A program made the position numbers and the translations under genes. A stretch of DNA of 64,000 bases from Rikenellaceae bacterium (GTDB lineage Bacteria > Bacteroidota > Bacteroidia > Bacteroidales > Rikenellaceae). Below, piece after piece: positions 4,138 to 28,710 of this stretch. The notes under the pieces were generated by a model. It was not told the origin of the DNA. It was given only the letters and a program-made list of their open reading frames with translations, and searched no databases. The stretch covers positions 337 through 64,336 of the forward strand of contig JBCQUC010000004.1 of the NCBI GenBank assembly GCA_047174275.1, given 5' to 3'. How positions within the stretch are numbered: position 1 is the stretch's first letter; each line of letters starts with the position of its first letter.

Positions 4138-4302
4138 GGAGACTTCTAATAATTCCCCAAAATACTTTTCCGCTACTATTCACCCCTTTTGCTTTTAGTC
4201 AAAATCGGTGGTAGGGGTCACTACAACCCACTTTGCCTAAAAACAAAATGGATAAATATTAACGAAAAATTATAATCGGGGAATTATTAGAAGTCCCCTT
4301 AA
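4134..4302. mobile_element. Family 3 MITE, copy 1
   Basis: 21-bp TIRs GG(A/G)GACTTCTAATAATTCCCC at 4138-4158 and 4278-4298, TTAA on both flanks; interior is the reverse complement homologue of 10069-10228. Confidence 0.8.
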
Positions 4303-7074: not shown

Positions 7075-8640
7075 ATGATGGAGAGATTTTGTAGTAATGG
7101 AGAGGGAGGTTGTGTTAAAGTTCGAGAGTTGGATATACTCCTCGAAATAACCTCCATGTTGAGCAGCAAGGATATTGATCTAAATGCTGTGATTAATCTA
7201 TTAGCCGAACATTTGGACGTATATCGGCTTTTTCTAACTATCCTCAATCGAGAGAGTCAAAATATTCTAATTGAGGGTGCTTATGGACTATCCGATGCAG
7301 AGAAACGTGATGGAGTCTACCATATTGGGGAGGGTATCATCGGAAAGGTAATTGCAACTGGAGAGCCATATATGATCCCTAACGTTGCGGAGTCTGCGGA
7401 GTTTCTGAACCGCACGAAAGCACCTCTTAACAGTAAAGGTAATTACACCTCATTTATATGTATTCCCGTTAAATATAAGGGCGAAGTGGTTGGTACACTG
7501 AGCTTTCATAAATTGGTTGAGCAGACAAATGTCATGTTTGACGATGAGATGCGATTGCTGCATATTGTCGCAGGTATGGTTGGTCGAACAGTTCGTCGTC
7601 GACAGGAGTACTTCGAGGAGATGGAGAAGCTCAAACGAGAGAATAGTCGTCTACGTAACAATATAATCAGTTATACAACTCAACCAGACAACATTAAAGG
7701 AAAGTCAGGCAAGATGAGTGAGGTCTTCTCGCTTATTGAGAGTGTTGCGGCGACCGATGCAACGGTGATTATTCGCGGTGAGAGTGGTGTGGGAAAGGAG
7801 TTGGTTGCGGATGCAATCCATAGCGGTAGTGTGCGTCGAGACAAACCGTTTATTAAGGTCAATTGTGCGGCACTTCCCGATAGCCTCATTGAGAGTGAGA
7901 TCTTTGGACACGAGAAGGGTGCATTTACAGGTGCTACTCAGCGACATATTGGTCGTTTTGAGGCGGCAAATGGTGGTACAATATTTCTCGATGAGTTGGG
8001 CGATGTTCCAGCATCGACTCAGATCAAACTTCTTCGAGTGCTTCAAGAGCGTGAAATTCAGAGGTTGGGAAGCTCAGAGACTATAAAGGTCGATGTTCGA
8101 GTGATCTGCGCAACCAATAGAAATCTGGAGAAGATGATCGCCGATGGTGAGTTTCGAGAGGATCTATACTATCGACTCAATGTGTTTCCTATCTATATTC
8201 CACCCCTTCGAGAGAGAATCAACGATATCCCTGTTCTTGTTGACCACTTTATCGAGAAGTTCAACAATAGATACAATCGAAAAGTTAAGCGCATAACATC
8301 AATGGCGATTGATACCTTGATTATGTATAATTGGCCTGGAAATATCCGAGAGTTGGAGAACTGTATGGAGCGAGCCTATATTCTTAGTCAAGAGGGTGTT
8401 ATCAGAGTCCACAATCTTCCGCCAACACTTCAAACGGCAGCTTCGTCTCAGACCGCAGCAAAGGGTAGCCTAGGTATAATAATGGGTAATCTGGAGAAGC
8501 AGGTGATCGTCGATGCCCTTATATCGACCAAAGGAAATATCGCAAAGGCGGCAGAGTCGCTATCTATAACAGAGAGAATTATGGGTCTTAGGATCTCGAA
8601 ATATGAGATCGATCCGAAACGCTATAAACCACAAAAATAG
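7075..8640 (+). CDS. nifA: NifA-type sigma54 enhancer-binding protein (GAF-AAA+-HTH)
   Basis: N-terminal [11 protein letters not shown] Walker A, GAFTGA loop, [21 protein letters not shown]-terminal HTH; nif context. The start may be 7078. Confidence 0.9.
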
Positions 8641-8645
8641 AGATA

Positions 8646-9116
8646 ATGGAACTTACATTTGAGATATGTGACTACTCAAATCCAGCACATTTGACCGCTG
8701 TAGCGGATCTTTTGCAGGGATATATGGCCGACCCGATGGGGGAGCATCGACCACACAATAAATTGGAGCAACTTCGGTTGGTTGATGGTTTGGCTAACCA
8801 TCCAGCTTCATTCGTACTTCTTGCTTGTGTCGAGGATCAAGCTATAGGATTTGCAACCTGTTTCGAACTATTCTCGACATTTGAGATTAAGCCATTCATA
8901 AATATCCACGATTTTTTCGTCTTGCCTTCCTATAGGGGGCATGGTATCGGACGTGCAATGTTGGAACATATCTCGGAGATTGCAGTCGAGAAAAAGTGTT
9001 GCAAGGTCTCTTTGGAGGTGCGTACAGACAATGCGGTGGCGCAGGGACTATACCGAAGTGTAGGGTTTGGCGAGGCAAATCCCGATATGTTGTTTTGGGT
9101 GAAAACCTTTTATTAG
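8646..9116 (+). CDS. GNAT-family N-acetyltransferase
   Basis: Acetyl-CoA motif A (V-LPSYRGHGIGRAML) and NAVAQGLYRSVGF; 5 bp after the nifA stop. Confidence 0.88.
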   Translation: MELTFEICDYSNPAHLTAVADLLQGYMADPMGEHRPHNKLEQLRLVDGLANHPASFVLLACVEDQAIGFATCFELFSTFEIKPFINIHDFFVLPSYRGHGIGRAMLEHISEIAVEKKCCKVSLEVRTDNAVAQGLYRSVGFGEANPDMLFWVKTFY

Positions 9117-9413
9117 TGTTCGATAAAAATCCAACAAACCTTTGTAATGCACTGTAATATAACAGATTGTATGCGTTTGTAAAATCAGGGACTTGCTTTT
9201 GCGAATAGTCCCATTTGAGATACGAAATTGAAAATTTCGTCATCCTGAACTTGTTTCAGGATCTCAGCAAATGACAATGTAGTCACAGTAGTGTGTTAAT
9301 AAACAATAGTTTAGTAAATGGTGTAGGGATCCTGAAACAAGTTCAGGATGACGAAATTTTCAATTTCGTATCTCACGTATGACTTGCTAGAAACGTTTTA
9401 TCAGACACTAATA
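9111..9413. mobile_element. Family 1 nested REP-doublet element, copy A
   Basis: Outer TIR TTAGTGT(C/T)(C/T)GATAAAA with TA flanks; inverted REPs GTCATCCTGAACTTGTTTCAGGATC(T/C)C around a 60-nt spacer (9266-9325). Confidence 0.85.
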
Positions 9414-9430
9414 AAAAAACTTTAGAGGAT

Positions 9431-9670
9431 ATGAGTATTCAGAATGCAATAAATTTCTTGGCACGAGTTCAATCAGATGATGATTATAGACAATCGTGCT
9501 ACAAATTTCGAACGAAACAAGACCTCATGGAATATATACAGCAGGAGGGCTATAGCTTTTCGGATGGGGAGTTTGAAAATGCTATAAACCATCTCCTGCT
9601 GCGATGCTCAGATGCGTCACAGGGGTACGAAGTGCACCACCTGCAAAGCTGGTTTAGTCTGTTTCAGTAG
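9431..9670 (+). CDS. Nif11-like small protein
   Basis: MSIQNAINFLARVQSDDDYRQ...QEGYSFS-E resembles the Nif11 pattern (MS...FL..V..D..LR...GY.FT.EE); AGAGGA ribosome-binding site. Confidence 0.7.
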   Translation: MSIQNAINFLARVQSDDDYRQSCYKFRTKQDLMEYIQQEGYSFSDGEFENAINHLLLRCSDASQGYEVHHLQSWFSLFQ

Positions 9671-10061
9671 CCGATTTTAGTCGTTCGGTTACCAAATCTT
9701 TTAGTTCATTTAGACCCTCGATCATCCTATCAATTTGTGGATTGTCGGGGGTTCTGTATCCAAAGTCATCAATCGAGCAGATACCTTCGAACGAGCCTAC
9801 CAAGACAGCTGTCTTTCTAAGGCTGAGGCTCAAATCTGGCTCGAAATCGTTCACTTCGCGATAGAGCATAAGCGGAAGATGACTCGTTGCAATTGAGTCG
9901 TGGTGCGCCAACCATGCTATCATAAACTTCTCGAAACATATTGCTATCATATTGTATAGCAGATCGTTGTCGAATTTGCGATTCGGATTGCTAAATGATG
10001 ATGTTATTGTGTTGAGGTAACTATTAGCAAAGTCATAGTTATCTTTGGCTAACTCTTTCAT
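9654..10061 (-). CDS. Hypothetical protein with possible HEPN-like fold
   Basis: 135 aa, helical; ICFEKFMIAWL and TSHLPLML resemble the HEPN 'EK.LKA.L' and 'THDL..L' motifs. Confidence 0.6.
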   Translation of the reverse strand: MKELAKDNYDFANSYLNTITSSFSNPNRKFDNDLLYNMIAICFEKFMIAWLAHHDSIATSHLPLMLYREVNDFEPDLSLSLRKTAVLVGSFEGICSIDDFGYRTPDNPQIDRMIEGLNELKDLVTERLKSATETD

Positions 10062-10064
10062 AGT

Positions 10065-10232
10065 TATAGGGGAGTTCTAATAATTCCCTAATTTTAATTT
10101 TTAGTTAATAATTGCCCATTTTTGATTTTGCAAAAGTGGGTTGTAGTGGCTCTACCACCGATTTTTGAAAAATCGAAAAGGGGTGGTTAGTAACTGAAGG
10201 GTATTTTAGGGAATTATTAGAACTCCCCTATA
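10065..10232. mobile_element. Family 3 MITE, copy 2
   Basis: TIRs GGGGAGTTCTAATAATTCCC at both ends (element 10069-10228), TATA on both flanks. Confidence 0.8.
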
Positions 10233-11349
10233 TTGTTTTGTATATTGACAATAGTTCCGTAGGCTCTAAATCTCGTTTGTTGAGTGTGCACCAACGGCGT
10301 ACCTCCTCCAGAAGTCGAGGCAGGATCTCATCTCGGCAGACAACTCCCAACTCCTCTAGTGCAGATTTGAGGGTCGCCATACACGTATGTTTTCCTATCT
10401 TAAATCGACGCTCTGTGAGCCCAATCTCTTCGGCTTTGATAAGTTGATATGTTGATCGATCGCGTTTTAGATACTTCGTGTGGATCCCACTCTCGTGTGT
10501 TAAAACGAGCTCTCCGACAATAGGCTTCGATACGCTGTTTTTGCGTCCCGATATTCTCTCAACATAGCTGCAAATCGAAGGGAATAGAGTCTTGTTGAGC
10601 CCAGTTGTGATACCTGTACTCTTCTCTATAGCCATCACAACCTCCTCCATCGCTGCGTTTCCAGCCCTCTCGCCCAATCCATTAACTGTTGTGCTGAGAG
10701 CATCTGCCCCTGCCATCCATGCCGCTATCGTATTCGCACACGCCATTCCCAAGTCGTTGTGGGCGTGAAACTCAATCGAAATATCAGGGCTGAGATCCCT
10801 TATCGGGCGAATTAGATCTTGTGTCGAGAATGGGTTGAGCAGACCAACTGTATCTGCTAGGCGTATCCTCTTAGCTCCACTCTTAATTGTCTCAAATGCA
10901 AACTCCTCAAGGAAATGGCTGTTAGCACGAGAGGCATCTTGAGCCCCGACACTTACATAATCGAATGTCTCGTAACTCCTCGTAACAATCTCTTGAATCT
11001 CCTTGAGCACCCATTTACGACTCTTACCCATCACTCCAAGCAGTTTGTCTGAGACAGGGAACGATAGATGTATTCCATCCACGCCACTCTTACGTGCAAG
11101 TTCGATCTCCGAAGGCATAGCTCTGCACCATGCCAACATCCTAGCATCGAAATTTGCATCGGTTATCGCCTTGATCTCTTCGATCGCAGCACACCCCATT
11201 GCTGGGGTTCCAACCTCAAACTCACTGACTCCCGCTTCACACAACATCGAGACTAGAGCGAACTTTTCATCGAGGGTAAATGCTACCCCCGACGCTTGTT
11301 CACCGTCACGAAGTGTAGTGTCTACAAATATAGGGTGCTTATAACTCAT
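10228..11349 (-). CDS. nifV: Homocitrate synthase
   Basis: DTTLRDGEQ, LADTVG, HAHNDLGMA, NGLGERAGNA, HESGIH; nif context. Confidence 0.92.
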   Translation of the reverse strand: MSYKHPIFVDTTLRDGEQASGVAFTLDEKFALVSMLCEAGVSEFEVGTPAMGCAAIEEIKAITDANFDARMLAWCRAMPSEIELARKSGVDGIHLSFPVSDKLLGVMGKSRKWVLKEIQEIVTRSYETFDYVSVGAQDASRANSHFLEEFAFETIKSGAKRIRLADTVGLLNPFSTQDLIRPIRDLSPDISIEFHAHNDLGMACANTIAAWMAGADALSTTVNGLGERAGNAAMEEVVMAIEKSTGITTGLNKTLFPSICSYVERISGRKNSVSKPIVGELVLTHESGIHTKYLKRDRSTYQLIKAEEIGLTERRFKIGKHTCMATLKSALEELGVVCRDEILPRLLEEVRRWCTLNKRDLEPTELLSIYKTI

Positions 11350-11358
11350 ATATGCTCT

Positions 11359-11667
11359 TTAGTCACTAATCAAATACTTCTCGCATGCCTCTCCATCTTC
11401 GAGCGCATCAAGGATCTCGTCGATCGCATCCTCGCTATCCACGCCGCCATACCAGAAATTTAGAGGTTGGATAACCATTGCTGGTCCTTGTGAACATACA
11501 TTTAGACAGGCTGTAGTGCTTACCACGACATCTAGTCCGCGGTCGCTTGTCTCCTCGACAATATATTGTAAAAGTTGTGGTGCTCCCTTTTTGTTGCAAA
11601 CACCCAATGCCTCGCCGCTAACTCTGTACGAGTTGCATAGCAGAATGTGATACTGTGGCTTTTTCAT
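11359..11667 (-). CDS. Thioredoxin-like [2Fe-2S] ferredoxin
   Basis: LLCNSYR..C..KG and TACLNVCSQGP..WYG pattern. Confidence 0.88.
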   Translation of the reverse strand: MKKPQYHILLCNSYRVSGEALGVCNKKGAPQLLQYIVEETSDRGLDVVVSTTACLNVCSQGPAMVIQPLNFWYGGVDSEDAIDEILDALEDGEACEKYLISD

Positions 11668-11752
11668 ACCCTGATAATTTTAATGTTAGTTGGTTATTCT
11701 GTTTTGTATTTACTACTTGTTGAAATATAAGTTTTGCTCCGCATTGGAGATT

Positions 11753-11867
11753 GTTGATAGGTGGATGAAATTTTGAAGATGGCGTAGAGGGCTCTGGAAG
11801 GAGCATACTTTAAGTATGTGACTGAAGAGAACTCTATGGTATCTTTAAAATTTCGCCGCCTTGCAAC
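11753..11867 (-). repeat. Family 2 stem-loop/REP element, copy a (after nifB)
   Basis: Imperfect terminal IRs GTTGATAGGTGG...CCGCCTTGCAAC around a central palindrome GCATACTT-T-AAGTATG-TGAC; the shared flank extends to about 11730. Confidence 0.8.
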
Positions 11868-11887
11868 AATCTCTGTTGTGAAGTGGA

Positions 11888-13141
11888 TCAACCGCATCCC
11901 ATTGCGTTCCCCTTGCAGTTTGATCCGCACTTGAAAGCGTCGCGTTTGGCTATAGACTTAATTACGCGGTTGCTATAGATTCCATCCAATCCCTCATCTA
12001 TAAGTCCTGTCATCTCAACAACATTGAGCCCAGAGCTCTTTAGAACCTTAAGTGGTTTGTCACCTACGCCACTTACAAGTAGTGCGCGACAATCTGAAAG
12101 CATCTTTGAGAGCATCTCCCAGCGGATATCACCCAATCCACGATCTGGAGTTTTGCGACTCTCGACCCACTTAAATCCATTTGGCGTTTGGCGATAAATA
12201 TTGAGTGAAGCAGCCTCTCCAAGATGCATATTTACAAGCATACCCTCATTTGTAGCTACGGCAACATATGGACGACTATCTGTGTCAACATCCGAACGCT
12301 GAGCATACTCGCTCATCAGAGCATGCGCTTCGCTCATATCCTGTCCCAAAAGACCAGCGGCATCCGCACGACACCTTGCGCAGTGGCTCATAAGTTTAAG
12401 GTGGTCTGACGCTAATGTGCGAACACGGAAGACCATCTTTGGATCAGGTTGCTCTAGATTCTCGAAAGCGGTGTCGGCAACAGGGATAAGCGGAATGCAG
12501 TTTATAACATCAGCACCCAATTCAGAGCATACTCTAGCAACCTCCTTGATCCCATCCTCGTTGATCGTTGGGATTATAATACTGTTGATCTTTACAGTTA
12601 TACCCTTCGCCTTTAGCTTTGGGATACATGCTAACTGCTTGTCGAGGAGTCTCTTTGCTCCATCTTCGCCTCGATAGATATGCTTTCCATCGCGAACCCA
12701 TTTGTAGATCTTCGCAAGAACCTTTGTGTCGATACTATTTATTGTGATGGTTACGTGGCTAACATTTAGCTCAGCAATCTCATCAATATATGGCTCTAGA
12801 CCAAGTCCATTTGTTGATAGGCAGAAGATCTTATCAGGGAATCTCTCGTGTGCAAGACGCATAGTCTCAAGAGTCTCCTCAGGGTTTGCAAATGGGTCTC
12901 CAGGGCCTGCAATACCAATTACCGACAGGTTTGGCATACGCTTATCGAGCTCCTCAAGATAACCTACAGATTGTTTTGGTGTGAGAATTGTCGATGTCAC
13001 TCCTGGGCGACTCTCGCTTACGCAATCATATTTGCGATTGCAATAGTTGCACTGAATATTGCACTTTGGCGCAACGGGTAGGTGTACTCGTGCGTGGGTA
13101 TGTTTTGCTTCAGCGTCGAAGCATGGGTGCTTGTGTTCCAT
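11888..13141 (-). CDS. nifB: FeMo-cofactor radical SAM protein NifB with C-terminal NifX-like domain
   Basis: HPCF, PKCNIQCNYC (CxxxCxxC), ESRPGV, IAGPGDP, HCARCRADA. Confidence 0.97.
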   Translation of the reverse strand: MEHKHPCFDAEAKHTHARVHLPVAPKCNIQCNYCNRKYDCVSESRPGVTSTILTPKQSVGYLEELDKRMPNLSVIGIAGPGDPFANPEETLETMRLAHERFPDKIFCLSTNGLGLEPYIDEIAELNVSHVTITINSIDTKVLAKIYKWVRDGKHIYRGEDGAKRLLDKQLACIPKLKAKGITVKINSIIIPTINEDGIKEVARVCSELGADVINCIPLIPVADTAFENLEQPDPKMVFRVRTLASDHLKLMSHCARCRADAAGLLGQDMSEAHALMSEYAQRSDVDTDSRPYVAVATNEGMLVNMHLGEAASLNIYRQTPNGFKWVESRKTPDRGLGDIRWEMLSKMLSDCRALLVSGVGDKPLKVLKSSGLNVVEMTGLIDEGLDGIYSNRVIKSIAKRDAFKCGSNCKGNAMGCG

Positions 13142-13145
13142 GATC

Positions 13146-14450
13146 TTAAATGTATTTATACCCTACGGGTGAGTTCTCTTGTTTATACTCTATTAATGCG
13201 TTTACAACTCTATCAAATAGCTCTTGTGTGCCTCGATATCCGATCTTTAACTGACGAGCAGCTCCAAAACGGTCGTGGATCGGGAATCCAACACGTATGA
13301 TTGGGATCTTTAGTTCGCGAGCTATATAGTAACCTTTGCTGCTTCCCATCATAATGTCGGGTTTGATCTGGTTGAGTTTGGCGTGTATCGACTCAAAATC
13401 TGTATCGGTGAACGAATAGACCTCAAGTCCAATCTCCTTGCACCATGCTGATAGTGCCGAGACCAAATCTGCCTCTCCGTAGATTGCGATCTTTTTGCCG
13501 AATAGATATTTGTGAGCATCTACATACGCATCTATCAATCGTCCACGCTCCATCTGATACTTCTTTGGGATCTCAACTCCATACTCAGCACTGAGACACT
13601 CCATAAATCTATCCGAAGCCTCTATGCCAATTGGAATCGGCATCTGGGTGTTTTTTACTCCGCAATCACTCTCCAGCCACTCTCCACCTGTTGGGATACG
13701 CCCGCTCTCGGATGTACGTTTGTAGAACTGGTTGAATCTCTCTCCAAACTCAATGACAGCCTTTGCATCTCCACACTCCTCAATCTCTTTGAGTGGTGTT
13801 CCTCCACTTGGAATAAGTTGATACTCCGCTGTATATACATTGTCGAGTGACTCGCTGTAGTCGGGAAATACCGTCCCCGTAACACCAAAGTCAGCGATGA
13901 TCTCCTTGATATATCTGATATCGGCAGGTGTCACCATTCCTGGTAGAACAACTAGCTTCTCGGTTCGCTTAGTTGACTTTGCGAGTGTCTTTAATGCTGA
14001 GAGAACCGTATTGTGAAACCCTTCGGCATGCGATCCACAGTAGCTAGGTGTCGAACTATGGATAAATGCTGGAAGATTATCCGACATCTTTGCATCGCGG
14101 TAGTTTCTGATGTGACCTGGGATATCCTCACCAATTGTCTCCGAGAGACATGTAGAGGCGATTCCGATCACCTTTGGGTGGTACTGTTTTATTATATTGT
14201 CTATTCCTGTTATGAAGTTTTTACTTCCTCCATATACCGTCGACTCCTCCGAAAAGTTGCTCGATGCAATATCTACGGGCTCTTTGTAGTGGCTAATCAT
14301 ATATCGGCGGATATATGTTGCACACCCTTGTGATCCGTGAATAAGCGGAACACAACCCTCAATCCCCTTGAATACCAACGATGCTCCAAGTGGGGCGCAA
14401 AGTTTGCAAGCGTTGCGCGACGATACGTATGTTTTATCCTCTGTTTTCAT
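13146..14450 (-). CDS. nifN: Nitrogenase cofactor scaffold NifN
   Basis: CAPLGA, HGSQGCATY, TCLSETIGED, GFPIHDR. Confidence 0.92.
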   Translation of the reverse strand: MKTEDKTYVSSRNACKLCAPLGASLVFKGIEGCVPLIHGSQGCATYIRRYMISHYKEPVDIASSNFSEESTVYGGSKNFITGIDNIIKQYHPKVIGIASTCLSETIGEDIPGHIRNYRDAKMSDNLPAFIHSSTPSYCGSHAEGFHNTVLSALKTLAKSTKRTEKLVVLPGMVTPADIRYIKEIIADFGVTGTVFPDYSESLDNVYTAEYQLIPSGGTPLKEIEECGDAKAVIEFGERFNQFYKRTSESGRIPTGGEWLESDCGVKNTQMPIPIGIEASDRFMECLSAEYGVEIPKKYQMERGRLIDAYVDAHKYLFGKKIAIYGEADLVSALSAWCKEIGLEVYSFTDTDFESIHAKLNQIKPDIMMGSSKGYYIARELKIPIIRVGFPIHDRFGAARQLKIGYRGTQELFDRVVNALIEYKQENSPVGYKYI

Positions 14451-15792
14451 CGCTCTCCCTCCTATTTGTTTTTGTAAATTTCCATACTGGAGTCATCGCT
14501 GTGGCGTAGATCTCCTTTGCAAAGTTCAACATCCCCTCGTATCCTGCAAGAGCCTCTTTGCGTTCGTGGTTGTGGTCACAAAAACCGAGTCCAATCTTGT
14601 AGGCTATCGGGCGTTCCTTCACACCTCCGATGAATATATCAGCCTCTTTCTCCTTTACGAAGTGGGAGAGCTCAATAGGGTTCGAGTCATCGACGATCAC
14701 AGTCCCCTCGTCACAAAGATTCTTTATGAGCTCATAATCTTCGGTAGAGCCAGTTTGAGATCCGATGATAACAGTCTTTACTCCGATGAGTCGAAGAGCC
14801 TTCACCAAAGAGATCGCTTTGAATGCTCCGCCGACATATATCGCAGCTCGCTTACCCTCCAAAGCCTCTTTGTATGGTTTTAGTGCAGGGAGCAGTCGAG
14901 TCATCTCGTCGCGGACAATTTCGCGAGCCCTCTCCATCATCTCGTCATCTTTGAAGAATCGAGCAACTTCGTATAGCGCATCGCTCATATCCTCAATTCC
15001 GAAGTATGATACATGCATAAATGGTGTGCCATACTCCTCTTTCATCATCTTGGCAAGGTGGATCATCGAGCCAGAACACTGCACAACATTGAGCCCCGCT
15101 TTGTGGGCGTTGCGAATATCATCGACACGTCCATCGCCAGTGATTGTTGCATTTACGTGGACTCCCATTCGCTTGTAGTATTCGAGCAGAATCCAGAGTT
15201 CACCCGCAAGGTTGAAATCTCCCAAAATATTTATACTCTTCTTGGGAATGTCGCCATCTCCTGTGCCGACCAACTTAAAGAGTGATTCACAAGCTACTTT
15301 GTAGCCATCTTTTTTCGAGCCCTGAAAACCTGGAGCTTGAACAGGTATTGTTGTGACACCAGTCTCCTCGGTCACCTGTTTACAGATCTGCTCAACATCA
15401 TCGCCAATCACACCTACGATACATGTCGTATAGACAAATGCCGCCTTTGGCTGGTGTGCTGCGATAAGCTCTATGAGCGAAGCGTATAACTTCTTTTCGC
15501 CGCCGAAGATTACATCTTTCTCTTGAAGGTCGGTCGAAAAACTTGTTCTGTGAAGTTCGGGCCCCGATGAAAGTGACCCTCGAATGTCCCAAGTGTATGC
15601 AGCGCAACCTATTGGGCCATGAATTATGTGTAAAGCATCCGCAATGGGGTATAGCACAACTCGTGATCCGCAAAAGACACACGCTCGTTGACTCATACTT
15701 CCTGCAAGACTCACTTTGCCAGCCTGAACAGTTGGTGCATCTGCGCCACTTGTCGAGACTTGCCTCTCCCTCTCCTTTAAAATGTGAGCCAT
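14434..15792 (-). CDS. nifE: Nitrogenase cofactor scaffold NifE
   Basis: RACVFCGSR, HGPIGCAAY, TCIVGVIGDD, VQCSGS. Confidence 0.93.
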   Translation of the reverse strand: MAHILKERERQVSTSGADAPTVQAGKVSLAGSMSQRACVFCGSRVVLYPIADALHIIHGPIGCAAYTWDIRGSLSSGPELHRTSFSTDLQEKDVIFGGEKKLYASLIELIAAHQPKAAFVYTTCIVGVIGDDVEQICKQVTEETGVTTIPVQAPGFQGSKKDGYKVACESLFKLVGTGDGDIPKKSINILGDFNLAGELWILLEYYKRMGVHVNATITGDGRVDDIRNAHKAGLNVVQCSGSMIHLAKMMKEEYGTPFMHVSYFGIEDMSDALYEVARFFKDDEMMERAREIVRDEMTRLLPALKPYKEALEGKRAAIYVGGAFKAISLVKALRLIGVKTVIIGSQTGSTEDYELIKNLCDEGTVIVDDSNPIELSHFVKEKEADIFIGGVKERPIAYKIGLGFCDHNHERKEALAGYEGMLNFAKEIYATAMTPVWKFTKTNRRESDENRG

Positions 15793-15808
15793 AACATTGA
15801 TTTTTTTG

Positions 15809-16086
15809 TATTAGTGTCCGATAAAACTTTCCTAGCAGTCCCATGTGAGATACGAAATTGAAAATTTCGTCATCCTGAACTTGTTTCAGGATCCCTGCAT
15901 TATTGATTAAGTTGTTGTGTGCTAATGTATTACAGGGGTTGTGTTGTCGTTTGCTGAGATCCTGAAACAAGTTCAGGATGACGAAATTTTCAATTTCGTA
16001 TCTCAAGTGAGACTATTAAGCCCCTAATTCCACAAACATATACAATCTGTTACAAAGGTTTGTCGGGTTTTTGTCGGACAGTAATA
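15809..16086. mobile_element. Family 1 nested REP-doublet element, copy B (nifK-nifE gap)
   Basis: Same layered IRs as copy A in the opposite orientation; 60-nt spacer; TA flanks. Confidence 0.85.
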
Positions 16087-16105
16087 ATTTTTTTTGTTTT
16101 GTTAA

Positions 16106-16148
16106 TTCGAAGATCTCAACCCTCTAATTTGAGGTTGAAATCTTCGAA
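16106..16148 (-). promoter_or_regulatory. Stem-loop immediately 3' of nifK
   Basis: TTCGAAGATCTCAACCCTC-TAATTT-GAGGTTGAAATCTTCGAA, 9 bp after the nifK stop; no U-tract on the minus strand. Confidence 0.6.
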
Positions 16149-16157
16149 AATATTGTA

Positions 16158-17537
16158 TTACATTTGGAACTCAATAGTCTCCTCTGTGCACTCTCTATCA
16201 CGGTGAGATAGAAGCTCATGGATGATTGAAGTTACCATGTTCGCAGCTCCCTTATAACCAGTCTTAGCGAAGTAGTTGTGACCAGCACGATCGGCGATTG
16301 GGAATCCCATACGATAGAATGGTGTGTTCTCGTCGCGAGCGATATACTTACCATAAGTATTTCCGATCAACAAATCAACACCCTCTTGTTTGATCCACTG
16401 GTGAAGTTGGAACATATCGGCATTTGCACCGCTCTTCCACTTAGCCTCTGGGATATCCTTTAGTAGCTCAGCCATACGCTCCTCGAACTCCTTACCTGGA
16501 GTACCCGTTACGATGTATACTGGACGCATATCCATAGATACAAGGAACTCAACCATTGGGATAAGTGTGTCTGGATCGCCCCACAATGCTACACGCTTGC
16601 CATACAAGTGAACCGAAGCATCTGAGATCAAATCGAGCAACTGACCGCGCTCGTAAGTCAACTCATCCGATACTGGAACGTTTGCGTGGCGGCTGATAGA
16701 TGTCAAGAAACGATCTGTAGCCAAGAATCCGATTGGAATATCAAGAACCTCGAATGGAACTTTACACTGATTCTCCATCTTGATACAAGCGTCGGTTGTA
16801 GTGTATGAACCCAAACCTACAGATACCTTGCTGTCACCGCTTAGGCGGATATCTGCAATTTTAGCACCTCCATCTGGGTACATCTTGTATGTTCCAGTCA
16901 TTGGCCCATCCAATACTCCTGTCATATCTGGGAACATGAATGTGCGACTCTCCATAACCTTGCAAAGTCTCTTGATCTCAGCTTGATCCGATGGCTCCAT
17001 CCAACCCGAAATAAGGTTGATTACGTTGCGTCTCTTGCCTGTTTTTGTGGCAAACGACTTCACCATCGAAGTTACCTGATTTGCATATCCAGTGACGTGT
17101 GTTCCAACATAACTTGGTGTGTTACAGTAGATAACCTCCTTGCCAGCTGGGATAAATCCATCTTCTGCAGCCTTCGATACAATCTGAGTCATATCATCAC
17201 CAATTGTCTCCGAAAGACAAGTTGTGTGAACTGCGATAACCTCTGGGTCGTAAGTTGTGAAGATCGTATTGATCGCCTGAACCAAGTTGGCAGAACCTCC
17301 AAATACTGAAGAACCCTCAGAGAATGAACTTGTAGCTGCCATGATTGGCTCTTTGAAGTGACGTGTAAGTGCACTTCGGTGGTATGAGCAACATCCTTGT
17401 GAACCGTGGCTATGTGGCAAACACCCGTGGATACCGAGTGCCGCGTACATTGCACCAACTGGTTGACAAGTCTTTGCTGGGTTGACCGTCAGAGCTTTTC
17501 TTTCGATCTCCTTATCTGTTGTGTGTCTTAATAACAT
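16158..17537 (-). CDS. nifK: Nitrogenase MoFe protein beta chain
   Basis: NPAKTCQPVGA, HGSQGCCSY, TTCLSETIGDD P-cluster ligands. Confidence 0.97.
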   Translation of the reverse strand: MLLRHTTDKEIERKALTVNPAKTCQPVGAMYAALGIHGCLPHSHGSQGCCSYHRSALTRHFKEPIMAATSSFSEGSSVFGGSANLVQAINTIFTTYDPEVIAVHTTCLSETIGDDMTQIVSKAAEDGFIPAGKEVIYCNTPSYVGTHVTGYANQVTSMVKSFATKTGKRRNVINLISGWMEPSDQAEIKRLCKVMESRTFMFPDMTGVLDGPMTGTYKMYPDGGAKIADIRLSGDSKVSVGLGSYTTTDACIKMENQCKVPFEVLDIPIGFLATDRFLTSISRHANVPVSDELTYERGQLLDLISDASVHLYGKRVALWGDPDTLIPMVEFLVSMDMRPVYIVTGTPGKEFEERMAELLKDIPEAKWKSGANADMFQLHQWIKQEGVDLLIGNTYGKYIARDENTPFYRMGFPIADRAGHNYFAKTGYKGAANMVTSIIHELLSHRDRECTEETIEFQM

Positions 17538-17550
17538 AATCTTTCCCTCT

Positions 17551-19179
17551 TTAATTTAGTACATAGCTTGCCTCAACATATGCCTCACGCTCCCATGGTG
17601 CCTTCAAATATTTGTGAAGTGTAGCGCATGAGATCATCTCGATATCTTTGTAGAAGTTGATAGCACCTGCAAATCCTGCATATGGGCCACCAGAATCGTA
17701 GTTGTGAAGCATCTTCAATGGAATACCCATCTTCTGAGCAACATACTTCTCCTTGATACCTGCACAGAATACATCTGGGTGGTATAGCTCGATCAACTTC
17801 TCCATCTCGTAGTGGCTCAAATCGTCGATAACGAGTGTGCCCTTCTGCATATCTGCCATAAGTCCCTCGTAGTCGTTGAACTCGCCGCCATTCGAGATCT
17901 TTGTCAAGTGCTCATCTGGTTTACGCTTGTTGTAACGCTCCTCATCTTTGTAGACTGTGATCTCCTCGATGTTACGGCTATCGGCATCAACTTGGATTGT
18001 TGGAATCACGCGGCGACCCTCGTAGTCATCACGGTGACCGAACTCATATCCAGCTGCAAGAGTTGTCATACCCAACTCGTTGAATAGCTCTTGGTAGTGG
18101 TGAGCGCGAGATCCACCGACAAACAACATCGCTGTCTTGCCAACTGTCTTTTTGCGAGCCTGCTCAGCTGCAGCCTCAACACGTACCATCTCCTCAGCGA
18201 TAACCTTCTCGATCTGGTCGATAAGCTCCTGATCCTCGAAGTACTCTCCGATTTTGCGAAGTGATTTAGCTGTTGCCTCAGCACCGATGAAGTTACACTT
18301 AGTCCAAGGAATACCGAACGATGTATTCAACATCTCAGCTACGTAGTTGATTGAACGGTGACACATAACAAGACTCAAATCTGCTGTGTGAGCACGCTCA
18401 AACTTAGTCATTGTAGCATTTCCCGACATTGTAGCGATTAGCTCAATTCCGCAACGATCCATCAAATCCTCAATTACGAAAGCGTCACCTCCGATGTTGT
18501 ACTCTCCAAGCAGATTGACACGATACTTGTGCTTGCCCTCGATTGTGTCATCCTTACCGATACAGTTCTTGTAGAGCTGATTGTTCGCGATGTGGTGACC
18601 AGCCGACTGAGATACTCCACGATATCCCTCGCAAGAGAAACCGATGATGTTAACCCCAGGGAACTCCTCCTCCATCTGGCGAGCTACACGGTGAACATCA
18701 TCACCGATAAGACCTACAGGACAAGTTGAGAATACTCCGATCGCCTTTGGGTGGAATAGCTCCATCGCCTCGCGGATCGCCTGCTTTAGCTTCTCCTCAC
18801 CACCGAATACGATGTTTGAGTCCTGCATATCAGTTGAGAAACAGTATGGGATGTAGTTCTCATCCATGTCAGACTCTGGGCGAGTCTGGTTACGACGTGT
18901 AAGCCATGAGTAGAATCCGCAACCGATCGGGCCGTGTGTGATATTTACGATATCACGAGTTGGTCCCATGATTACTCCCTTACAACCTGCGTAAGTACAA
19001 CCACGCTGTGTGATGATACCTGGCACTGTACGTACATTGGCTTGGATCTTTGGGATCAGATCTGGGTCGTTTACGGCAACCGCCTTAGAACGTTTTTTTG
19101 CTACCTTCTTCGGGTACTTCTCAGCTACCGCCTCGACGAACTCCGAAAAATCTGGTAATTTCTTTATATCTTCTTTCAT
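17551..19179 (-). CDS. nifD: Nitrogenase MoFe protein alpha chain (long, group II type)
   Basis: RGCTYAGC, HGPIGCG, TCPVGLIGDD, SAGHHIAN, MCHRSINY, GGSRAHHY, LHNYDSGGPY; about 50-aa insertion (RVIPTIQVDADSRNIEE...). Confidence 0.97.
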   Translation of the reverse strand: MKEDIKKLPDFSEFVEAVAEKYPKKVAKKRSKAVAVNDPDLIPKIQANVRTVPGIITQRGCTYAGCKGVIMGPTRDIVNITHGPIGCGFYSWLTRRNQTRPESDMDENYIPYCFSTDMQDSNIVFGGEEKLKQAIREAMELFHPKAIGVFSTCPVGLIGDDVHRVARQMEEEFPGVNIIGFSCEGYRGVSQSAGHHIANNQLYKNCIGKDDTIEGKHKYRVNLLGEYNIGGDAFVIEDLMDRCGIELIATMSGNATMTKFERAHTADLSLVMCHRSINYVAEMLNTSFGIPWTKCNFIGAEATAKSLRKIGEYFEDQELIDQIEKVIAEEMVRVEAAAEQARKKTVGKTAMLFVGGSRAHHYQELFNELGMTTLAAGYEFGHRDDYEGRRVIPTIQVDADSRNIEEITVYKDEERYNKRKPDEHLTKISNGGEFNDYEGLMADMQKGTLVIDDLSHYEMEKLIELYHPDVFCAGIKEKYVAQKMGIPLKMLHNYDSGGPYAGFAGAINFYKDIEMISCATLHKYLKAPWEREAYVEASYVLN

Positions 19180-19190
19180 AGGAATCTTAT

Positions 19191-19556
19191 TTAATCGAGT
19201 GTGATATCTCCAGTCTCACCTGTGCGGACACGAACTGATTCGAATGTGTTGACCACGAAGATCTTACCATCTCCACTCTTGCCCGTTTGGTTAACCTTAA
19301 TAATTGTCTCTACAGCCAAATCCTTCTTGTCGTCAGTTACAACAAGCGTAATCATACGCTTAGATTTTAGACGTGGATTCTGCTGAATATGCTCGTGGTG
19401 CTCAGGGTCGATACCCTCAGCCTTCTCCAAATCGCCGTGACCCTTACCACGTCCCACAACTGGAAGAGCTGTGAACGATGGTAGATCGACTGCAGAGAGA
19501 GCCTCCTTAGTCTCGGTCATCTTCGCGATACGGATGATTGCCATTATTAACTTCAT
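19191..19556 (-). CDS. nifI2: NifI2, PII-like nitrogenase switch-off protein
   Basis: GRGKG, PKR-like SKRMI, TGKSGDGKIFV, RVRTGE; located between nifH and nifD. Confidence 0.88.
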   Translation of the reverse strand: MKLIMAIIRIAKMTETKEALSAVDLPSFTALPVVGRGKGHGDLEKAEGIDPEHHEHIQQNPRLKSKRMITLVVTDDKKDLAVETIIKVNQTGKSGDGKIFVVNTFESVRVRTGETGDITLD

Positions 19557-19588
19557 AGTAATCTAATTTATTAGTCGTTTTTTGTAAA

Positions 19589-19630
19589 GTTGATAGGTGG
19601 ATGAAATTTGAAATTTCGTCGCATTGCAAC
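19589..19630 (-). repeat. Family 2 element, internally deleted copy b (after nifI1)
   Basis: GTTGATAGGTGGATGAAATTT-GAAATTTCGTCGCATTGCAAC: only the terminal arms remain. Confidence 0.7.
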
Positions 19631-19631
19631 T

Positions 19632-19958
19632 TTACACCTCCATGAATCCTGAAGAGATAGTATAGCACTCCTCAACTGGTGTAACGAAGATCTTACCATC
19701 TCCGAACTGTCCTGTTGCGCTAGAGCGAGCTGAGTTTATGATTGTCTCAATCACAAAATCTTTGTCCTTCTTTTTGATAGTAATCATCAACATCTCCTTT
19801 GGAAGCTCATCATACGTTACGTTTCCAGCCTTGATACCACGCTGCTTACCACGTCCATATACTGCGATCTTTGTAACGGCTGGGAATCCAGCGTCCATCA
19901 ACGACTTCATTACTACTGCCGATTTTTCTGGTCTTACGATTGCTCTAATTAAATACAT
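19632..19958 (-). CDS. nifI1: NifI1, PII-like nitrogenase switch-off protein
   Basis: AIVRPEK, GRGKQRG, YDELPKEML, GQFGDGKIFV. Confidence 0.88.
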   Translation of the reverse strand: MYLIRAIVRPEKSAVVMKSLMDAGFPAVTKIAVYGRGKQRGIKAGNVTYDELPKEMLMITIKKKDKDFVIETIINSARSSATGQFGDGKIFVTPVEECYTISSGFMEV

Positions 19959-19996
19959 TGTCTTGATTTTTTATTTGGTTTGTGTTTTGCTCAAAA

Positions 19997-20111
19997 GTTG
20001 ATAAGTGGATGAGATCTTGTGCATCGTAAGCTGGCGGAGGAGGGAGCATACTTTGGGTATGTGACCGATTGCCGACAGCTTGGGATGTGCAAGATCTCAC
20101 CACCTTGCAAC
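19997..20111 (-). repeat. Family 2 element, copy c (after nifH)
   Basis: GTTGATAAGTGG...GAGCATACTTTGGGTATGTGAC...CCACCTTGCAAC with divergent inner arms. Confidence 0.75.
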
Positions 20112-20117
20112 TTTTGT

Positions 20118-20975
<858 letters not shown>

Positions 20976-21008: not shown

Positions 21009-21024
21009 TGCATTAAGTGTGCCA
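21009..21024 (-). promoter_or_regulatory. Sigma54 (-24/-12) promoter of nifH
   Basis: Minus strand TGGCAC-ACTTA-ATGCA with correct GG-N10-GC spacing, about 65 bp upstream of the ATG. Confidence 0.85.
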
Positions 21025-21298: not shown

Positions 21299-21539
21299 TA
21301 TTAGTGTTCGATAAAACTTTTCTAGCAGTCCTACTTGAGATACGAAATTGAAAATTTCGTCATCCTGAACTTGTTTCAGGATCTCTACATCATTGAGTAA
21401 GCTATTGCTTATTAGTATATTACAGAGGCGATATTGTCATTTGCTGAGATCCTGAAACAAGTTCAGGATGACGAATCCGTTGGATTCGATAACATGGTGC
21501 CAATAAAGTTGTTACAAGTGTTGTTATCGGACACTGATA
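21299..21539. mobile_element. Family 1 nested REP-doublet element, copy C
   Basis: Outer TIRs with TA flanks, REP doublet, 60-nt spacer; an extra REP remnant follows at 21545-21557. Confidence 0.85.
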
Positions 21540-27293: not shown

Positions 27294-28490
27294 ATGAAAG
27301 TTAATGTAGGAGTGGTCTTTGGTGGTCGCTCGGTAGAGAATGAGATCTCGGTTGTCACAGCAAATCAGGTGATTAATGCTATGGATAGCGAGAGATATAA
27401 TATAATTCCGATCTTTATAAGCAAATCGGGAAAGTGGTATAGCGGAGAGCAACTTCTGGATCTTAAGCGATACAAAGATATGACAAGCCTGCTCGCTGAG
27501 TGCGAAGAGGTCTATATTCGTCCGATCTATGGAGACTCTAATCTATATAGGTGTAAAAAGTCGATGTTTGGAACAGATGTCGTTGCAAGTTTGGATGTTG
27601 TTGTGCCGACGCTCCATGGAACAAACTGCGAGGATGGCACTTTCCAAGGTGTGATAGAGTTCGCAGGTATTCCATATGCAGGGTGTAATACACTAGCATC
27701 GGCAAATGGAATGGATAAGATCACCATGAAGATGATACTTACGGAGTGTGGCATTCCAGTGGTTGATTATGCGTGGTTCTGCGACAAGGAGTGGATGGAT
27801 GATAGCGAGAGTGTTATTGAGAGTGTTGAGGATAAGTTAGGCTATCCAGTTATTGTGAAGCCTGCTAACTCTGGATCGAGCATTGGAATCAAGGCAGCTC
27901 ACAATAGAGAGGAGCTAGAGGATGCAATCGAGAATGCAATATCTTTCACAACACGTATTATTGTGGAGCGATTTGTAGCTAACCTAAAGGAGGTAAACTG
28001 TTCGATATTAGGTGATTACTACGATTGTGAGGCATCGGTATGCGAAGTGCCACTCCGAAATGGTGAGATACTCTCTTACGAAGATAAATATATGGGAGGC
28101 GGAGCGAAACAGGGCTCTAAGGGTATGCAGTCGACTGTTCGAGAGATCCCTGCTAATCTGCCTGATGATGTGACAGATTTTATACAGTGTACAGGTTGTC
28201 AGACCTTCAAGGCGTTGTCTTGTGATGGTGTGGCGCGTATCGACTTTATTATAGATCAAGATACGGATCAAATATATGTTAATGAGATCAATACTATTCC
28301 TGGTTCATTGTCGTTCTATTTGTGGGAGGCATCGGGAGTTAGCTTCACTAAATTGATGGATCGTGTCATCGACCTTGCATTTAAGCGTCAGAGAGAGTAT
28401 AGCCACAAAGTTGTAGATTTCGGAGGTAACATCTTCGCAGCCCAAAGTAGTGGCGGAGCTAAGATGGGCGGAGCAAAATACAAGAAATAG
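27294..28490 (+). CDS. ddl: D-alanine--D-alanine ligase
   Basis: FGGRSVE, LHGTNCEDG, VKPANSGSSIG, SYEDKY, ARIDF, NEINTIPG. Confidence 0.93.
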   Translation: MKVNVGVVFGGRSVENEISVVTANQVINAMDSERYNIIPIFISKSGKWYSGEQLLDLKRYKDMTSLLAECEEVYIRPIYGDSNLYRCKKSMFGTDVVASLDVVVPTLHGTNCEDGTFQGVIEFAGIPYAGCNTLASANGMDKITMKMILTECGIPVVDYAWFCDKEWMDDSESVIESVEDKLGYPVIVKPANSGSSIGIKAAHNREELEDAIENAISFTTRIIVERFVANLKEVNCSILGDYYDCEASVCEVPLRNGEILSYEDKYMGGGAKQGSKGMQSTVREIPANLPDDVTDFIQCTGCQTFKALSCDGVARIDFIIDQDTDQIYVNEINTIPGSLSFYLWEASGVSFTKLMDRVIDLAFKRQREYSHKVVDFGGNIFAAQSSGGAKMGGAKYKK

Positions 28491-28505
28491 ATGCAATATA
28501 TTGAT

Positions 28506-28710
28506 TGTTAGTGTCCGAAAAAACTTTTCTAGCACTCCCATGTGAGATGCGAAATTGAAAATTTCGTCATCCTGAACTTGTTTCAGGATCTCTGCATCAT
28601 TGAGTAAGTTGTATTGTCGTTTGCTGAGATCCTGAAACAAGTTCAGGATGACGACTCTTTCAGAGTCGAGACGAGTCGAGACGTGCTGCAAAGGTTTTGT
28701 CGGACAAATA
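28506..28710. mobile_element. Family 1 element, copy D (shortened spacer, collapsed right arm)
   Basis: REP doublet around a 33-nt spacer; degenerate outer TIRs. Confidence 0.8.

Follow-up and report, generated by a model that had tools for sequence, protein, structure and literature searches.

Several described proteins bear on the gene dealt with here, a gene for a protein of 135 amino acids (in the following ORFX) that lies at the end of a nitrogen fixation (nif) operon in a Rikenellaceae bacterium (Bacteroidota, Bacteroidales; GenBank assembly GCA_047174275.1). The stretch analysed, below called the window, comprises 64,000 nucleotides of contig JBCQUC010000004.1 (positions 337 to 64,336), and coordinates refer to it unless a locus is named. 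ORFX is very probably a HEPN-fold protein without RNase function that serves as an accessory dedicated to nif, and it can thus be compared with HEPN proteins on the one hand and with the small accessory proteins of nif operons on the other. Like the classical HEPN proteins with entries 1ufb, 1wol, 1o3u and 2hsb in the Protein Data Bank (PDB), it is a small four-helix bundle (template modelling [TM] scores 0.55-0.71), and the Glu-Lys of helix 2 and the His before helix 3 can be aligned between them. However, where the classical proteins have the Arg of an R-Y-P loop or Rx4-6H motif, ORFX has I-C-S with an invariant Cys, and unlike them it has no neighbouring minimal nucleotidyltransferase (MNT) gene and is confined to nif clusters and the genomes of diazotrophs. 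The HepT/DUF86 toxins of type VII HEPN-MNT systems (Shewanella SO_3166, 5yep; also 6m6u and 7ae6) match ORFX in fold as well (TM 0.5-0.6), but they contain the RNase motif RX4HXY, the Tyr of which is AMPylated by a neighbouring MntA, and ORFX has neither. In the HEPN domain of sacsin (3o10; TM 0.71, among the five best fold matches) and the C-terminal domain of kanamycin nucleotidyltransferase (KNTase), the fold is used for binding and not for RNA cleavage; these modules serve to bind nucleotides or to complete the site of a nucleotidyltransferase, whereas neither such a partner nor such a ligand is apparent for ORFX.

With NifW, NifZ, NifX/NafY/NifY, NifQ, NifO and NifT, in turn, ORFX shares its small size, its position within nif operons and a strict linkage to nif, but its fold is different and there is no sequence match to them in Pfam or NCBIfam. 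In Klebsiella-type clusters it is nifW that follows nifV, and NafY binds the iron-molybdenum cofactor (FeMo-co) through a His. Stand-alone genes for any of these accessory proteins were not seen in the ORFX loci examined, which are NifI-containing clusters of anaerobes. No description of the gene was found in the published literature on HEPN and nif, and a survey of nif clusters in Bacteroidetes (Inoue et al. 2015, PMC4356463), which covers nifHDKENB, glnB-like genes, the ferredoxin, nifA and modABC, does not list it. What is new here is a known fold family, HEPN, in a new and specific association with nitrogen fixation.

A conserved gene with a HEPN fold

ORFX occupies positions 9654 to 10061 on the minus strand, with the ATG at 10061-10059 and the TAA at 9656-9654, and is documented by its open reading frame (ORF), its homologues, a structural model, profile comparisons and the ratio of nonsynonymous to synonymous substitution rates (dN/dS). 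The initial annotation had given exactly these limits, the motifs it quoted are present in the sequence (EKFMIAWL at residues 44-51, TSHLPLML at 59-66 and GYRTP at 101-105), and its placement of ORFX as the last gene of the nif operon agrees with the gene order, in which ORFX comes after nifV. Its label 'orphan', on the other hand, has to be given up. A search covering 5.8 billion proteins yielded 69 close homologues with 46-79% identity, all of them nameless or 'hypothetical' and, where a source is named, from metagenome-assembled genomes (MAGs) of Rikenellaceae; an exhaustive profile search added 124 more distant relatives, and altogether the homologues number 69 close and over 160 distant ones. 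The genome holds a single copy of the gene. Compared with its nearest relatives dN is 0.11-0.15 at saturated dS (omega about 0.04-0.10), and 21 residues are invariant among 35 aligned homologues; ORFX is therefore a genuine gene under strong purifying selection and not a chance ORF.

By itself, the ORFX sequence matched no family of Pfam or NCBIfam at E <= 1, including the curated models of NifW, NifZ, NifX/NafY, NifQ, NifO, NifT and Nif11, and nothing useful among the PDB sequences. A confident AlphaFold model computed from the alignment of the 35 homologues (predicted local distance difference test [pLDDT] 90.2, predicted TM score 0.85) consists of three long helices (residues 2-24, 32-53 and 107-133) and a short pair (63-71/79-89), with a poorly defined loop at residues 95-99 (pLDDT <50), and has the trait of the HEPN superfamily, i.e., a compact, all-alpha, up-and-down four-helix bundle of about 110-140 residues. 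When this model was compared with the PDB by Foldseek, seven of the best eight matches were HEPN domains, with TM scores of up to 0.71 and a modest best E-value of 4.7e-3; among them are ST0689 (1wol), TT1696 (1ufb), TM0613 (1o3u), AF_0298 (2hsb), the sacsin HEPN domain and HEPN toxins.

Profile comparisons point in the same direction. With 17 PF05168 (Pfam HEPN) proteins from Bacteroidales genomes as the canonical set, hhalign aligned the broad profile of the ORFX family, which includes the distant relatives (A3), over 122 columns (Prob 95.1, E 3e-8), and the profile of the close family (A1) with Prob 82.4 and E 1e-5. In this alignment E44-K45 coincides with the canonical Glu-Lys of helix 2 and H61 with the canonical His, and C95-S96 faces the Arg of the R-Y-P loop; in the same register the A3 profile matches TT1696 (1ufb) in the PDB, with E44 and H61 on its Glu and His. 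A direct match to PF05168 was moreover obtained for 28 of the 60 distant relatives aligned, the best with E 7.4e-7 and most of them close to the cut-off of 22 bits, and some distant relatives are labelled 'HEPN domain-containing' by NCBI or JGI; no protein of the genome to which the window belongs matched this family at E <= 1e-8. Two further profile matches in the PDB were discarded, namely a chance alignment of 20 residues, which was the sole match of A1, and a match of A3 to the neck repeat of a C-type lectin (3jqh), a low-complexity coiled coil. The HEPN fold, put forward tentatively in the initial annotation, is thus corroborated by the Foldseek ranking and by the 95% hhalign probability to PF05168 proteins, and ORFX very probably descends from a classical HEPN domain of the PF05168 type, of which it has kept the four-helix bundle, E44-K45 and H61.

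The annotation had also remarked on the absence of an RNase motif and of a nucleotidyltransferase partner, and on both counts it was right. An R-x(4-6)-H motif, which in HEPN RNases forms the catalytic centre where the last helix begins, is not present in the ORFX sequence, the neighbours of ORFX in the window are nifV and the Nif11 gene and not a nucleotidyltransferase gene, and in the 75 species loci described below the genes beside it are likewise not MNT genes but nifV, nifH, GNAT, Nif11 or NifA. Its term 'catalytically inactive', however, would apply to RNase chemistry only. According to the alignment, C95 in the motif I-C-S now takes the position of the RNase Arg: in 60 family members with 18-39% identity this Cys is invariant within the consensus F/Q-x-I-C-S, and F30, E44 and H61 are each conserved in more than 90%. 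Because this Cys stands at the position of the RNase Arg next to a Glu and a His that were kept, it speaks for a site with a new binding or reactive function and not for a dead one. The predicted pocket residues are encoded on the minus strand at 9930-9932 (E44), 9879-9881 (H61) and 9777-9779 (C95), and the thiol of C95 is single, invariant and probably activated.

Association with nitrogen fixation

In a scan of one genome per species of the Genome Taxonomy Database (GTDB), 75 ORFX loci were found in Rikenellaceae, Paludibacter, Dysgonomonas, Bacteroides luti, Alkaliflexus, Breznakibacter, Geofilum, Natronoflexus, Alkalitalea, Microbacter and a MAG labelled Prevotella. By mapping the nif proteins of the window onto these loci, about 66 of the 75 were seen to be linked to nif, in four different gene orders. 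In the majority (arrangement A), ORFX ends the series nifH...nifB-fdx-nifV-ORFX and is convergent with Nif11-GNAT-NifA, as in the window, while in Marinilabiliaceae (arrangement B) it is divergent from nifH and again convergent with Nif11-GNAT-NifA. In Dysgonomonas (arrangement C) nifV, NifA, GNAT and ORFX follow each other on one strand, and in locus L001 (arrangement D) ORFX lies beside NifA and modABC. The unlinked copies adjoin PfkB, EamA or MFS genes or sit between a DEAD-box helicase gene and the gene for GMP synthase, and nifH is present elsewhere, at 92-95% identity, in all five of the genomes with an unlinked copy that were tested. In an uncultured lineage of Bacteroidales a gene for a nucleoside diphosphate kinase comes directly after ORFX in the nif operon (L005:8432-8893; also L006 and L007).

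Stand-alone copies of ORFX carry putative promoters of their own. In L001, L071, L074, L075 and L079 a sigma-54-type sequence TGGCAY-N5-NTGCW, for which about 0.014 occurrences per 900 nt and strand are expected by chance, lies 22-104 nt before the start codon and resembles the -24/-12 promoter of nifH in the window (TGGCAC-N5-ATGCA, 21009-21024, minus strand, 67 nt before the ATG). Upstream activating sequences for NifA (TGT-N10-ACA) were not found, and as the region upstream of nifH in the window is also without any, this negative is uninformative.

The distribution of ORFX among genomes follows that of nitrogenase. NifD is present in 37 of 401 Bacteroidales genomes, and the broad ORFX profile matches 27 of the 401 at E <= 1e-8, of which 25 are positive for NifD; in other words, ORFX is found in 25/37 genomes with NifD vs. 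2/364 without (related genomes are not independent samples in these counts, and no P-value is given). The two exceptions are a fragmented MAG of 620 contigs and a genome with a broken remnant of ORFX that has three in-frame stop codons (G120:C1:1387193-1387450), the latter being consistent with decay after the loss of nitrogen fixation. In the genus from which the window comes, the same five of 81 sampled genomes have both NifD and ORFX (5/5 with NifD vs. 0/76 without). The connection with nif proposed in the initial annotation is thus borne out by the linkage of about 66 of the 75 loci together with the near-exclusive occurrence in diazotrophs, and a phylogenetic profile, run with NifD, follows nitrogenase at the level of both the order and the genus. 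In turn, as many diazotroph genomes have no match, ORFX is an optional and lineage-specific accessory gene in the molybdenum-nitrogenase clusters of anaerobes, which many lineages can do without for diazotrophy, and not a core component.

Relatives of ORFX with 20-27% identity occur next to nif genes outside the Bacteroidales, on metagenome contigs that either bear Desulfobulbaceae names or are unnamed. Of six such distant relatives that were checked, five are linked to nif and one is not. In loci L084-L086 the operon reads nifH-I1-I2-D-K-nifB'-fdx-GNAT-ORFX, the protein of L084 having Desulfobulbaceae names in NCBI, whereas loci of the L087/L088 type have the order nifE-N-B-fdx-nifV-DUF2292-ORFX-(99 aa)...modABC; the DUF2292 gene between nifV and ORFX codes for 56 amino acids (L087:2944-3114, L088:7705-7875). 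On the strength of these contigs, the ORFX family appears with nif in at least two phyla. The gene that follows ORFX in the latter loci belongs to a family of proteins of about 96-129 amino acids (motif YAYDDLVF..H.AFL; below the ~99-aa family), which follows ORFX both in distant nif operons and, within the Bacteroidales, at about 25 of the 75 loci, many of them from Paludibacter and Marinilabiliaceae (copies at L005:8897-9226, L085:8421-8810, L086:8139-8429, L087:3548-3844 and L088:8464-8763). The family has no Pfam match and was not found in the genome of the window.

Organisation of the nif locus in the window

The nif operon in the window is complete and lies on the minus strand, in the order nifH-I1-I2-D-K-E-N-B-fdx-nifV with ORFX as the last gene. 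Its structural and cofactor genes, from nifH (20118-20942) through the two PII-like genes nifI1 and nifI2 and nifD, nifK, nifE and nifN to nifB (11888-13141), extend over 11888-20942, and are followed by the gene for a thioredoxin-like 2Fe-2S ferredoxin (11359-11667) and by nifV, coding for homocitrate synthase, directly upstream of ORFX (10228-11349). A comparison of 9654-20942 with locus L012 (genome G446) revealed that the NifD, NifK and PII proteins are 96-98% identical, with only 70% for NifV, 64% for ORFX and 71% for Nif11. This mosaic divergence suggests that either the nifHDK part has undergone recombination or transfer, or the genes at the tail have evolved much faster.

From the plus strand, three genes converge on ORFX (7075-9670), namely those for a NifA-like sigma-54 activator with GAF, AAA+ and HTH_8 domains (7075-8640), for a GNAT acetyltransferase that recurs as a neighbour of ORFX across phyla (8646-9116), and for a Nif11-domain protein of 79 amino acids (9431-9670). 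The 3' ends of ORFX and the Nif11 gene overlap by 17 nt (9654-9670), and in relatives the two genes are spaced by just 2-22 nt. An intrinsic terminator was not found between them, the sole terminator-like call being the arm of the transposable element described next. Given this overlap or tight spacing in the absence of a terminator, the operons on the two sides must transcribe into each other.

Upstream of ORFX, the spacer of 166 nt to nifV is filled by a palindromic insertion resembling a miniature inverted-repeat transposable element (MITE). The insertion spans 10065-10232 and has no assigned strand; the element proper has 160 bp (10069-10228) and 27-nt perfect terminal inverted arms, is flanked by a TATA duplication (10065-10068 and 10229-10232), and contains the stop codon of nifV in its end. 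As RNA it would form a hairpin of -67 kcal/mol (z = -10.5). A second copy is found in the window at 4138-4298, and the genome has at least eight full-length copies, the best of them 98% identical, with ends of the GGGGAGTTCTAATAATTCCC type and 4-bp palindromic flanks (TATA, TTAA). Three relatives hold the empty site, in which only 2-3 nt separate the nifV stop codon from the ATG of ORFX; therefore, the insertion between the two genes is recent, and ORFX, at a distance of 2 nt from nifV before the insertion, would originally have been translationally coupled to nifV, a coupling that the element has apparently broken.

A second family of repeats, with the core GATCCTGAAACAAGTTCAGGATGAC and inverted arms of 57 nt, lies between the GNAT and Nif11 genes (9207-9384). 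Further copies with the GATCCTGAAACAAGTTCAGGATGAC core are located upstream of nifH (~21330-21490), between nifK and nifE (15800-16100) and at 28300-28690, and these repeats give rise to spurious ORFs containing 'ILKQVQDDEIFNF'.

Possible functions of ORFX

As a whole, the explanation that we tentatively favour, with chances that fall somewhat short of even, is that ORFX is a HEPN-derived, non-RNase binding protein accessory to nif and engaged in cofactor assembly. It would accordingly be a small and probably dimeric binding protein and not a nuclease, and its Glu-His-Cys pocket of E44, H61 and C95, lying where HEPN proteins have their active cleft, might bind a metal, a species of Fe-S or sulfur, or some other small ligand. 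Made together with NifB, the ferredoxin and NifV under the control of sigma-54 and NifA, it would act in the cofactor-assembly branch of nitrogenase maturation, to which this neighbourhood belongs. Such a role is favoured because of the company of NifB, ferredoxin and NifV in the operon and because of the invariant and probably activated thiol, although taken as a separate claim the specific handling of cofactor, metal or sulfur has to be regarded as doubtful. Still more speculative is a detailed version, in which a HEPN-type dimer would bring two Cys95/His61 pairs together where the RNase cleft used to be. For a short time the dimer would bind an Fe-S fragment, persulfide sulfur or a Mo/Fe species there, to be used in the NifB- and NifEN-dependent synthesis of FeMo-co, and it would be part of a module of GNAT, HEPN-like protein, Nif11 and ~99-aa protein that is carried by anaerobic diazotrophs of at least two phyla.

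Several observations weigh against a role in cofactor assembly. ORFX itself has no sequence match in Pfam, NCBIfam or the PDB, the loop with C95 is modelled with low confidence, the spatial clustering of E44, H61 and C95 is read from the HEPN alignment, and one conserved Cys together with a His makes a poor case for a metal or cluster site. In addition, ORFX is missing from 12 of the 37 NifD-positive Bacteroidales genomes and had no match at E <= 1e-8 in 55 NifD-positive genomes from elsewhere in the phylum (51 of them from one family), no sigma-54 promoter was found before ORFX in loci of the Marinilabiliaceae and Dysgonomonas types (arrangements B and C), and the frequent adjacency to the GNAT gene and the NifA operon would suit a role in regulation just as well.

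This adjacency also leads to the alternative that ORFX might be the partner subunit of the nif-linked GNAT, contributing a substrate-binding half or one that completes the active site, or might itself be modified by the GNAT; the two, perhaps together with Nif11 and the ~99-aa protein, would then acylate a nitrogenase-related protein or metabolite. HEPN domains are known to pair with nucleotidyltransferases, as in the C-terminal domain of kanamycin nucleotidyltransferase and in the HI0073/HI0074 pair, and GNAT is the most frequent non-nif neighbour of ORFX. The two genes are co-directional, with GNAT first, and nearly abut each other in the three distant nif operons of L084-L086 (27, 3 and 6 nt), the same order is found in Dysgonomonas (~100 nt) and in four Bacteroidales genomes from three families (G114, G137, G221 and G328), and in the window and most Bacteroidales loci GNAT lies within 0.25-2.6 kb of ORFX in the convergent operon. 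However, the two do not co-vary: GNAT was found in 31 of 36 NifD-positive Bacteroidales genomes, among them 10 of the 12 that lack ORFX, three genomes with ORFX have no GNAT match, and in operons of the L087/L088 type no GNAT adjoins ORFX. Moreover, the GNATs of the two phyla share just about 28% identity and belong to a generic type, which leaves their orthology unproven. The occurrence table thus weakens an obligate partnership and leaves a pairing that is recurrent but not obligatory, and we consider a functional unit of GNAT and ORFX unlikely, while worth keeping in mind.

Slightly less probable again is that ORFX serves as a regulatory sensor, which would bind a nucleotide, a signal of the 2-oxoglutarate type or, via its Cys, a redox signal, and would modulate NifA, the PII proteins NifI1/NifI2 or nitrogenase itself; regulation was one of the two roles that the initial annotation had put forward. 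Some non-nuclease HEPN domains, such as those of sacsin and KNTase, bind nucleotides, and the nucleoside diphosphate kinase gene after ORFX in L005-L007 could be seen in the same light. In Bacteroidales, ORFX always lies at the junction with the Nif11-GNAT-NifA operon, on whichever side the structural genes are found (arrangements A, B and C), and in L001, where it has its own sigma-54 promoter, NifA is its only nif neighbour. In the distant operons, by contrast, ORFX is placed inside nifHDK- or nifENB-type operons, far from the end at which a regulatory partner is located, and a known nucleotide-binding motif was not identified in its sequence.

Improbable, in our view, is that ORFX might be an enzyme with a Cys-His-Glu triad on a HEPN scaffold, such as a thioesterase, an amidase or an acyl transferase for acyl-CoA or a homocitrate-related intermediate. 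Throughout the family there is exactly one conserved Cys, one conserved His and one conserved Glu, and in many loci ORFX is translationally coupled to NifV and often neighbours GNAT, both of which use acetyl-CoA; yet we know of no precedent for such a triad in a HEPN domain, and adjacency of ORFX to nifV is not constant, as arrangements B, C and D and the loci of the Desulfobulbaceae type show.

Finally, a decayed HEPN toxin, or a functional RNase toxin hitch-hiking in the nif cluster, would agree with the fold and with the abundance of mobile repeats around the gene, but it is so improbable that a toxin-antitoxin or defence function is rejected, as ORFX has neither an Rx4-6H motif nor an MNT or antitoxin gene beside it, is under strong purifying selection, is conserved across phyla in one copy per genome, tracks nif at the level of the order and the genus, and was not matched by the PADLOC defence models (nor was P0224, and P0264 only spuriously at E 0.012).

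Implications for nitrogenase biology

The maturation of nitrogenase is known mainly from aerobic Proteobacteria, and few of the helper genes known from there are seen in the compact, NifI-containing clusters of anaerobes, which are templates for the engineering of minimal nif systems. Since it tracks nitrogenase in four gene orders, by its near-exclusive presence in NifD-positive genomes and by the putative sigma-54 promoters of its unlinked copies, the ORFX family is a concrete candidate for a missing nitrogenase helper or regulator in two phyla, and as several of its carriers can be cultured, direct testing is possible. For the HEPN fold, the exchange of the nuclease Arg for an invariant Cys, with the adjacent Glu and His retained, represents a new evolutionary outcome. 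If the dimer with its two Cys95/His61 pairs should prove true, the scaffold of a HEPN RNase would have been repurposed as a nitrogenase assembly factor within a previously unrecognised module.

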